A DNA stretch of 64,000 bases from Escherichia coli. GTDB lineage: Bacteria > Pseudomonadota > Gammaproteobacteria > Enterobacterales > Enterobacteriaceae. The position numbers were made by a program, and so were the translations under genes. The stretch lies in the NCBI RefSeq assembly GCF_003790525.1, contig NZ_CP033634.1. One strand, given 5' to 3'. Shown in pieces: positions 53,445 through 54,437 of the stretch. The notes under the pieces were generated by a model. It did no database searches. It was given only the letters and a program-made list of their open reading frames with translations, and was not told where the DNA came from. Numbering within the stretch: the first letter of the stretch is position 1; every line of letters begins with the position of its first letter.

Positions 53445-53693
53445 ATGATGAAGGTCATATTCACGTCGAACCGTTTTATTGATTTTCTTATCCGGCTTTT
53501 GATTACAGCGATTGTCATTTCCCCGGTAATTATCTGGTCGTGGGATACGGTAAAAGAAACCACGGCAGACGGGATGCCTGCCGCTGCTTTCGTTATCCTT
53601 TACTCCGGTGTGCTCCTGTTTATTCTGTATTTTTGTTTTTCTGCCCTGACCTGCAGAAAACCGATGAAAGAAAAAATGATGAAAGGAATGAAG
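53445..53693 (+). CDS. trbE: TrbE (reads in frame into traF without an intervening stop)
   Basis: MKVIFTSNRFIDFLIRLLITAIVISPV... membrane protein; end coordinate set at the traF start. Confidence 0.6.
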
Positions 53694-54437
53694 ATGAATA
53701 AAGCATTACTGCCACTGTTACTCTGCTGCTTTATTTTTCCGGCGTCAGGGAAAGATGCAGGCTGGCAGTGGTATAACGAGAAAATAAATCCGAAGGAAAA
53801 AGAAAATAAACCTGTACCTGCAGCCCCCCGTCAGGAGCCGGATATTATGCAGAAACTGGCCGCGCTGCAGACGGCAACAAAGCGGGCGCTGTACGAAGCC
53901 ATTCTGTATCCCGGCGTGGATAATTTTGTGAAATATTTCCGGCTGCAGAATTACTGGACTCAGCAGGCCGGGCTTTTCACCATGAGTGCTAAAAAAGCTA
54001 TGCTGGCACATCCCGAACTGGACTATAACCTGCAGTACAGCCATTACAACGGCACGGTCCGGAACCAGCTGGCGGCAGACCAGGCGCAGCAGCGACAGGC
54101 CATTGCGAAACTGGCTGAACACTACGGCATCATGTTCTTTTACCGGGGGCAGGACCCCATCGACGGGCAGCTGGCGCAGGTCATTAATGGCTTCAGGGAT
54201 ACCTATGGTCTGAGTGTTATTCCCGTTTCCGTGGATGGTGTGATTAATCCGCTGTTGCCGGATTCCCGGACTGACCAGGGGCAGGCGCAGCGCCTCGGCG
54301 TGAAATATTTCCCGGCCATGATGCTGGTTGACCCGAAACAGGGCAGTGTTCGCCCGTTATCATACGGCTTTATTTCGCAGGACGACCTGGCAAAACAATT
54401 CCTGAACGTTTCTGAAGATTTTAAACCCAATTTTTAA
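53694..54437 (+). CDS. traF: TraF (thioredoxin-like fold pilus assembly protein)
   Basis: 247 aa from MNKALLPLLLCCFIFPASG signal peptide, matching F TraF length. Confidence 0.85.
   Translation: MNKALLPLLLCCFIFPASGKDAGWQWYNEKINPKEKENKPVPAAPRQEPDIMQKLAALQTATKRALYEAILYPGVDNFVKYFRLQNYWTQQAGLFTMSAKKAMLAHPELDYNLQYSHYNGTVRNQLAADQAQQRQAIAKLAEHYGIMFFYRGQDPIDGQLAQVINGFRDTYGLSVIPVSVDGVINPLLPDSRTDQGQAQRLGVKYFPAMMLVDPKQGSVRPLSYGFISQDDLAKQFLNVSEDFKPNF

Follow-up and report, generated by a model that had tools for sequence, protein, structure and literature searches.

A four-base frameshift in trbE joins trbE and traF into one open reading frame in an F-type transfer operon of Escherichia coli

The trbE-traF locus and its genetic context

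In the window, i.e., the whole 64,000-nt stretch of E. coli DNA analyzed here, traF occupied the position expected in an F-type tra operon, after traN and trbE and before trbA, as verified by the ORFs of the window and the RefSeq annotation of DNA identical or nearly identical to it. The ORF listing and the translation of the window revealed that positions 53445-54437 of the plus strand formed a single ORF of 330 codons that begins with ATG and ends with TAA, and that the closest in-frame stop on its 5′ side was placed at 53433. Initiation at the second ATG (53448), which is the start used for trbE by public annotation, gives a 329-aa product. Profile searches divided this ORF into two parts, since residues 2-76 matched TrbE (NF010271, 127-131 bits, cutoff 94; PF11100, 53.4 bits, cutoff 25) and residues 83-330 matched full-length TraF (NF010257, TIGR02739, and PF13728). 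The uninterrupted 330-codon trbE/traF frame proposed by the initial annotation was thus borne out by the ORF listing, the translation, and the profile split, and the TraF signal peptide that it had placed at an internal ATG at 53694 was indeed read from the sequence at that position. The features of the locus were as follows:

53445..54437, plus strand: fused trbE′-traF ORF, from the ORF listing; 329 aa if begun at 53448
53448..53701, plus strand: trbE remnant of 254 nt, in the limits of the RefSeq "frameshifted" pseudogene; the canonical gene has 258 nt
53472..53546, plus strand: predicted first hydrophobic (membrane) segment of TrbE by Kyte-Doolittle, aa 9-33 of the 329-aa product
53571..53657, plus strand: predicted second hydrophobic segment of TrbE by Kyte-Doolittle, aa 42-70
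53646..53649, plus strand: sole remaining CTGA unit, the deletion site, from alignments and sequence context
53650..53693, plus strand: new linker ..CRKPMKEKMMKGMK, the traF-frame reading of the stretch that normally encodes the acidic TrbE tail
53684..53687, plus strand: Shine-Dalgarno-like AGGA, 6 nt before the traF ATG, read from the sequence
53694..54437, plus strand: traF, 247 aa plus stop, 245 of the 247 residues identical to plasmid F TraF
53694..53750, plus strand: TraF signal peptide MNKALLPLLLCCFIFPASG, from sequence and hydropathy, with an A-x-G cleavage motif before K20
53699..53701, plus strand: canonical trbE stop TAA, inside ATGAATAA, present and now out of frame

The assignment of 53694-54437 to TraF was supported by 479 bits for NF010257 (cutoff of 294, profile positions 2-248 of 248), about 336 bits for TIGR02739 (cutoff of 204.6), and 234.5 bits for PF13728 (cutoff of 23). 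The TrbB model TIGR02738 was matched only weakly (39.6 bits against a cutoff of 132), and the mature TraF sequence contained no cysteine; TraF is described in a passage of PMC7555446 as having a thioredoxin-like C-terminal domain that, unlike TrbB, is devoid of the CXXC motif. The N-terminus presented a hydrophobic stretch followed by an A-S-G/K motif, as found in Sec signal peptides, and it was the same peptide as that of F TraF, for which a signal peptide of 19 residues is given in a passage of the same paper (citing Wu et al. 1988). On the TrbE side, the window matched positions 1-75 of the 84 of the NCBIfam profile NF010271, the tail was replaced after residue 68, and no stop preceded traF. 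Consequently, the locus did not contain a whole, independent TrbE (about 71-86 aa) ending in a C-terminus and stop codon of its own.

Other particularities were observed along the tra operon of the window. An HNH endonuclease gene (51152-51574, plus strand), whose stop overlaps the traN start, and an adjoining hypothetical ORF (50756-51127) were placed between trbC and traN, unlike plasmid F, in which traN directly follows trbC. The TraN encoded at 51571-53421 (plus strand) had 616 aa, in comparison with 602 aa in plasmid F. Several extra small ORFs were present between traR and traC (43218-44414, plus strand), and their equivalents in the related plasmid NZ_CP128973.1 were annotated as hypothetical proteins, one of them as "frameshifted". 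This plasmid, otherwise nearly identical to the window, also carried an IS3-family element (49801-51014) between traU and trbC, in the equivalent of window positions ~49200-50100, which was absent from the window.

A four-base deletion bypasses the trbE stop

In plasmid F (NC_002483), trbE (80848-81105, 258 nt) and traF (81098-81841) are read in separate frames with an overlap of 8 nt, and in canonical F-like plasmids trbE has 85-86 codons, with its TAA overlapping the traF start in ATGAATAA. The operon order traN-trbE-traF-trbA was common to the window and F, TrbE residues 1-68 were nearly identical between them, and both preserved the ATGAATAA motif and the same traF ribosome-binding site, ATG, and signal peptide. 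However, whereas TrbE of plasmid F ends in the acidic tail TDLQKPDERKSDERNEDE followed by its own stop, TrbE of the window was devoid of both and read into traF.

The alignment with the trbE-traF region of F, suggested by the initial annotation as a check, revealed the origin of this difference. In alignments with NC_002483, LS992186, and others, the window presented one CTGA where plasmid F has the tandem CTGACTGA, the canonical sequence around the site being ...TCTGCCCTGACTGACCTGCAG... and that of the window ...TCTGCCCTGACCTGCAG.... The tandem was found near the trbE 3′ end in plasmid F and in about 3400 other F-like plasmids, and the deletion lay ~50 nt 5′ of the trbE TAA. In plasmid F, a TGA within the first CTGA closes the traF frame 17 codons 5′ of the traF ATG, and no stop occurs in the 16 codons from there to the ATG. 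Therefore, the loss of 4 bases brings trbE, from codon 69 on, into the traF frame without any intervening stop. One CTGA of the tandem was thus lost, most likely by replication slippage; 3′ of codon 68, trbE is shifted and runs straight into traF, and TrbE is deprived of its acidic C-terminal tail, which leaves trbE as a frameshifted pseudogene or remnant, in agreement with public annotation.

The trbE stop was hence bypassed by a frameshift and not lost. The initial annotation had considered a fusion produced by the loss of this stop, of which the fusion stood and the stop loss did not: a point mutation in the stop was ruled out by the intact TAA at 53699-53701, and a 4-base deletion was found instead. 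Moreover, the open frame of 330 codons was not a product of chance, since its first 68 codons are the genuine trbE coding frame and only 16 further codons, also stop-free in plasmid F, needed to be open.

Separate genes as the ancestral state

The tandem CTGACTGA was present in F, LS992186, E. albertii plasmids, and relatives down to about 92% identity. In more distant plasmids, TrbE was also encoded by a stand-alone gene: Klebsiella F-type plasmids carried an 84-aa TrbE followed by other small ORFs, and Salmonella IncFII plasmids carried a 71-aa TrbE separated from traF by a gap of 11 nt, with about 42-48% identity for the Klebsiella and Salmonella TrbE. Because these distant F-like plasmids have a stand-alone trbE, sequence comparison indicates that the two genes were ancestrally separate and that the fused frame is derived. 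The opposite polarity, in which an original fusion would have been divided by duplication of CTGA, was ruled out by the occurrence of CTGACTGA throughout F-like diversity down to 92% identity together with the stand-alone trbE of Klebsiella and Salmonella.

Distribution of the allele

A megablast search of the region against 72,556 plasmids returned 3675 matching records, at least four of which had the length of the query (three at 100% identity and one at 99.4%), while the others among the matches listed were 4 bases longer. The allele was defined by a 100-bp query across the deletion (53596-53695), which was matched at 100% in 6 of 2823 matching RefSeq E. coli replicons and in 5 of 3443 PLSDB records; the remaining full-length matches, among those listed, had 4 extra bases. 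Over these 100 bp at the trbE 3′ end and junction, the window was identical to all six RefSeq carriers, which were:

CP070073: FDAARGOS_1287, USA, human
CP100504: Switzerland, poultry
CP129283: pGZM7d, China, chicken
CP128973: TUM1886, Japan
CP172218 and CP172187: Switzerland, chicken meat

These plasmids differed from the window by 0-9 substitutions over 1.7-2.5 kb. In the 2.5-kb region, CP172218 and CP172187 were identical to the window and CP070073 had 5 mismatches, while CP100504 differed from it downstream of traF, revealing a mosaic flank. The exact 329-aa product was found on 346 public contigs (453 index blocks of the protein collection), and in the contigs sampled it stood beside a 616-aa TraN in two downstream contexts. 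This TraN variant was also observed in every examined carrier of the exact allele of the window. Thus, the allele is rare, as it accounts for about 0.15-0.2% of the F-like plasmids of complete-genome collections, but it is real and numerous in absolute terms. A fusion conserved across diverged lineages was not found among these records (5 of 3443 in PLSDB and 6 of 2823 in RefSeq), the carriers being all nearly identical.

The allele had already been recorded in public databases, under two conventions, and it corresponds to an already known, ordinary frameshift that pseudogenizes an accessory gene. For identical DNA, the RefSeq/PGAP records give trbE as a "frameshifted" pseudogene, as verified in five carriers (CP070073, CP100504, CP172218, CP172187, and CP128973), and traF on the carrier plasmids as an ordinary CDS of 247 aa starting at the internal ATG. 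In turn, GenBank and UniRef hold a 329-aa "TraF" (AYW28424.1; UniRef100 n=75, Enterobacterales), which is the window product from the second ATG, for which Pfam lists both TrbE and TraF, and which differs from the RefSeq entries only by annotation choice. It was also observed that the 329-aa product belongs to a cluster (90% identity, 7123 members) whose representative and most listed members are the 616-aa TraN; this cluster looks like a clustering artefact, possibly derived from chimeric or run-on gene calls.

Other indels at the trbE 3′ end

A tblastn search with the junction peptide showed that 24 of 3433 records aligned across the junction in one piece, a figure that overcounts fusions, as the E. 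albertii plasmids, pRCS52, and CP057775 among them carry an in-frame TGA. One record, NZ_LR882980.1 (50417-51023, aligned to window positions 53445-53770), presented the same CTGA loss in a clearly different haplotype, in which TraN has 602 aa, TrbE residue 45 is Leu rather than Pro, and one more TGA triplet precedes GATGAAAG; this suggests either an independent recurrence of slippage or recombination over a very short tract.

Moreover, two homopolymers close to the deletion were affected in other plasmids. A –1 deletion in the A-run GAAAGAAAAA, equivalent to ~53665-53675 of the window, was found in pSCU-479-1 (CP054318.1), p417H-90 (NC_019094.1), and the Klebsiella plasmid CP095582.1. These alleles also carried an in-frame trbE′-traF, although with more of the TrbE tail kept than in the window, and in CP054318 the fusion was annotated as one 993-nt traF CDS. 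A –1 deletion in the T-run TTTTTGTTTTT, equivalent to ~53630-53640, was found in seven E. albertii plasmids (NZ_CP034167.1 and six sister records of ~136.7 kb), in pRCS52, and in CP057775. This latter variant enters the traF frame before the TGA, so that TrbE is truncated at 66 aa (..FCFLP, followed by the stop) and no fusion is formed. Some of these homopolymer variants may be assembly errors. The trbE 3′ end is thus a small hotspot of slippage-type indels, where trbE becomes fused to traF each time that its last ~50 nt suffer a shift into the frame of traF. A further indel was observed just past the traF start in Shigella flexneri CP102231.1 (30788-31391), where 4 bases were missing in ATGAATAAA----TACTG (window equivalent 53703-53706). 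In this case, the normal TraF N-terminus was broken and traF was annotated from a later start, which may reflect a real defect or an assembly error.

Expected expression of traF

The internal initiation of TraF within a read-through trbE frame, which was the other possibility raised by the initial annotation, probably holds in practice, as traF kept its own Shine-Dalgarno and PGAP places its start at 53694. The Shine-Dalgarno lies in a stretch rich in A and G for which no pairing is predicted, with a local fold of –8.7 kcal/mol (z = 0.13). The TraF annotated in the carrier plasmids corresponds to RefSeq WP_001030371.1 and WP_001030376.1, the latter being shared by CP129283, which has the deletion, and LS992186, in which trbE is intact. 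Since the ribosome-binding site, the start, the signal peptide, and the sequence itself were kept, we infer that TraF is most likely made from 53694 and exported normally. Nevertheless, the lost overlap between stop and start, which possibly couples the translation of both genes, together with ribosomes translating through from trbE, could shift the TraF yield either way.

A harmful outcome would be expected if through-translation from trbE occluded the traF start or mislocalized the fusion, the plasmid then being kept vertically or with helpers. The IS3 element inserted in the tra operon of CP128973 would be in line with a transfer-impaired plasmid; however, every other tra gene was annotated as intact in this same carrier. 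Several other observations oppose this possibility, which we consider unlikely: the traF Shine-Dalgarno, ATG, and signal peptide were untouched and predicted to be accessible, TraF preserved 245 of 247 residues of its F counterpart and had one variant in common with a plasmid harboring an intact trbE, and the wide range of strains, hosts, and continents of the carriers fits ongoing horizontal spread. Regarding strain GZM7, pGZM7d was recovered in transconjugants only alongside another conjugative IncFII plasmid (PMC11067769). As the selection demanded both plasmids by design, this co-transfer says nothing about self-transfer of the carrier plasmid.

TrbE is reportedly a small membrane protein whose disruption has no effect on F transfer. 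The deletion is therefore probably neutral or nearly so, falling in a gene reported as dispensable for F transfer. Overall, it is highly probable that the F-type transfer operon carries here a derived allele generated by a 4-base slippage deletion, in which trbE was pseudogenized and TraF is most likely unaffected.

The putative TrbE′-TraF product

Ribosomes starting at trbE would yield a 329-aa TrbE′-TraF fusion. The deletion sits at the 3′ edge of the predicted second hydrophobic segment of TrbE, and the acidic tail TDLQKTDERKNDERNEDE (net charge –4) is replaced by the basic stretch TCRKPMKEKMMKGMK, followed by the whole TraF precursor; the linker (aa 68-85) has a net charge of +6 versus –4 in the canonical tail. 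Hydropathy and charge analyses also indicated a positively charged N-terminus and a net-negative loop between the two predicted helices. By the positive-inside rule, the fusion is predicted to have its N-terminus inside, two membrane helices, and the +6 linker in the cytoplasm, and the TraF signal sequence with its ASG/K site would act as a third membrane-inserting segment. The TraF domain of such a fusion would still be expected to reach the periplasm, where signal peptidase would probably release it.

This predicted topology, with a +6 linker and then a signal peptide, is coherent enough to raise the idea of a selected function, in which a membrane-anchored TrbE′-TraF, or TraF translated from the trbE start, would be advantageous for pilus assembly or TraF dosage. 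The spread of the allele over hundreds of contigs, plasmids of several sizes (63-148 kb), and two downstream contexts, as well as the deletion on a second haplotype in LR882980, could be read in the same direction. However, hitch-hiking on a successful plasmid backbone suffices to explain the spread, and slippage in a tandem repeat predicts recurrence anyway. Furthermore, the carriers form a narrow and nearly identical group, restricted to the small fraction of F-like plasmids given above, separate genes are ancestral and overwhelmingly dominant, and relaxed constraint fits better with sister indels that merely truncate TrbE. Hence, a selected fusion seems decidedly improbable, and we would give equally little credence to the specific proposal that the 329-aa product is made and functional, e.g., as a membrane-tethered TraF precursor cleaved at its internal signal-peptidase site, and that the allele spread and recurred because it was advantageous. 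If the fusion were made and processed, it would speculatively represent a natural case in which two membrane helices precede an internal signal peptide that is cleaved.

Artefact and recoding as alternative explanations

A sequencing error removing a stop codon was named by the initial annotation as the observation that could overturn the fused frame; as an artefact of sequencing or assembly, the deletion would conceal a real plasmid with normal separate trbE and traF. Small indels are indeed a common assembly error, and some of the other frame-breaking variants (–1 in A-runs and T-runs) fell in homopolymers, where long-read errors are typical. Nevertheless, the unit missing here is a tetranucleotide and not a homopolymer, and the identical allele was found in six complete RefSeq plasmids, sequenced independently in different laboratories and originating from different countries and hosts. 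At least one of these carriers came from a hybrid assembly, that of GZM7, which combined Illumina and ONT reads (PMC11067769), and many of the 346 contigs encoding the 329-aa product belonged to draft assemblies. Since the same tetranucleotide loss was repeated across many independent assemblies, the artefact was rejected as very unlikely.

Practically no weight can be given to a programmed recoding that would normally link trbE and traF and that the allele would have hard-wired: the 8-nt overlap of the canonical genes (ATGAATAA) is compatible with translational coupling, but no slippery heptamer was found, a search for a stimulatory RNA structure at the junction returned none (the fold being no better than shuffled sequence, z = 0.13), the canonical traF frame is closed by the TGA 17 codons 5′ of its ATG, the layout is not conserved (an 11-nt gap in Salmonella IncFII and other ORFs after trbE in Klebsiella), and the canonical locus bears no recoding mark in public annotation.

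Implications for the F-type transfer operon

With the slippage deletion as the preferred explanation, the relevance of this allele is in part practical. The coexistence of two annotation styles for the same DNA can inflate the apparent diversity of TraF; moreover, surveys of tra gene presence may score trbE as missing, and protein clustering may be confused. The biological weight of the finding is small: trbE tolerates frameshifts at its slippage-prone 3′ end, while the essential traF is unaffected at the sequence level.
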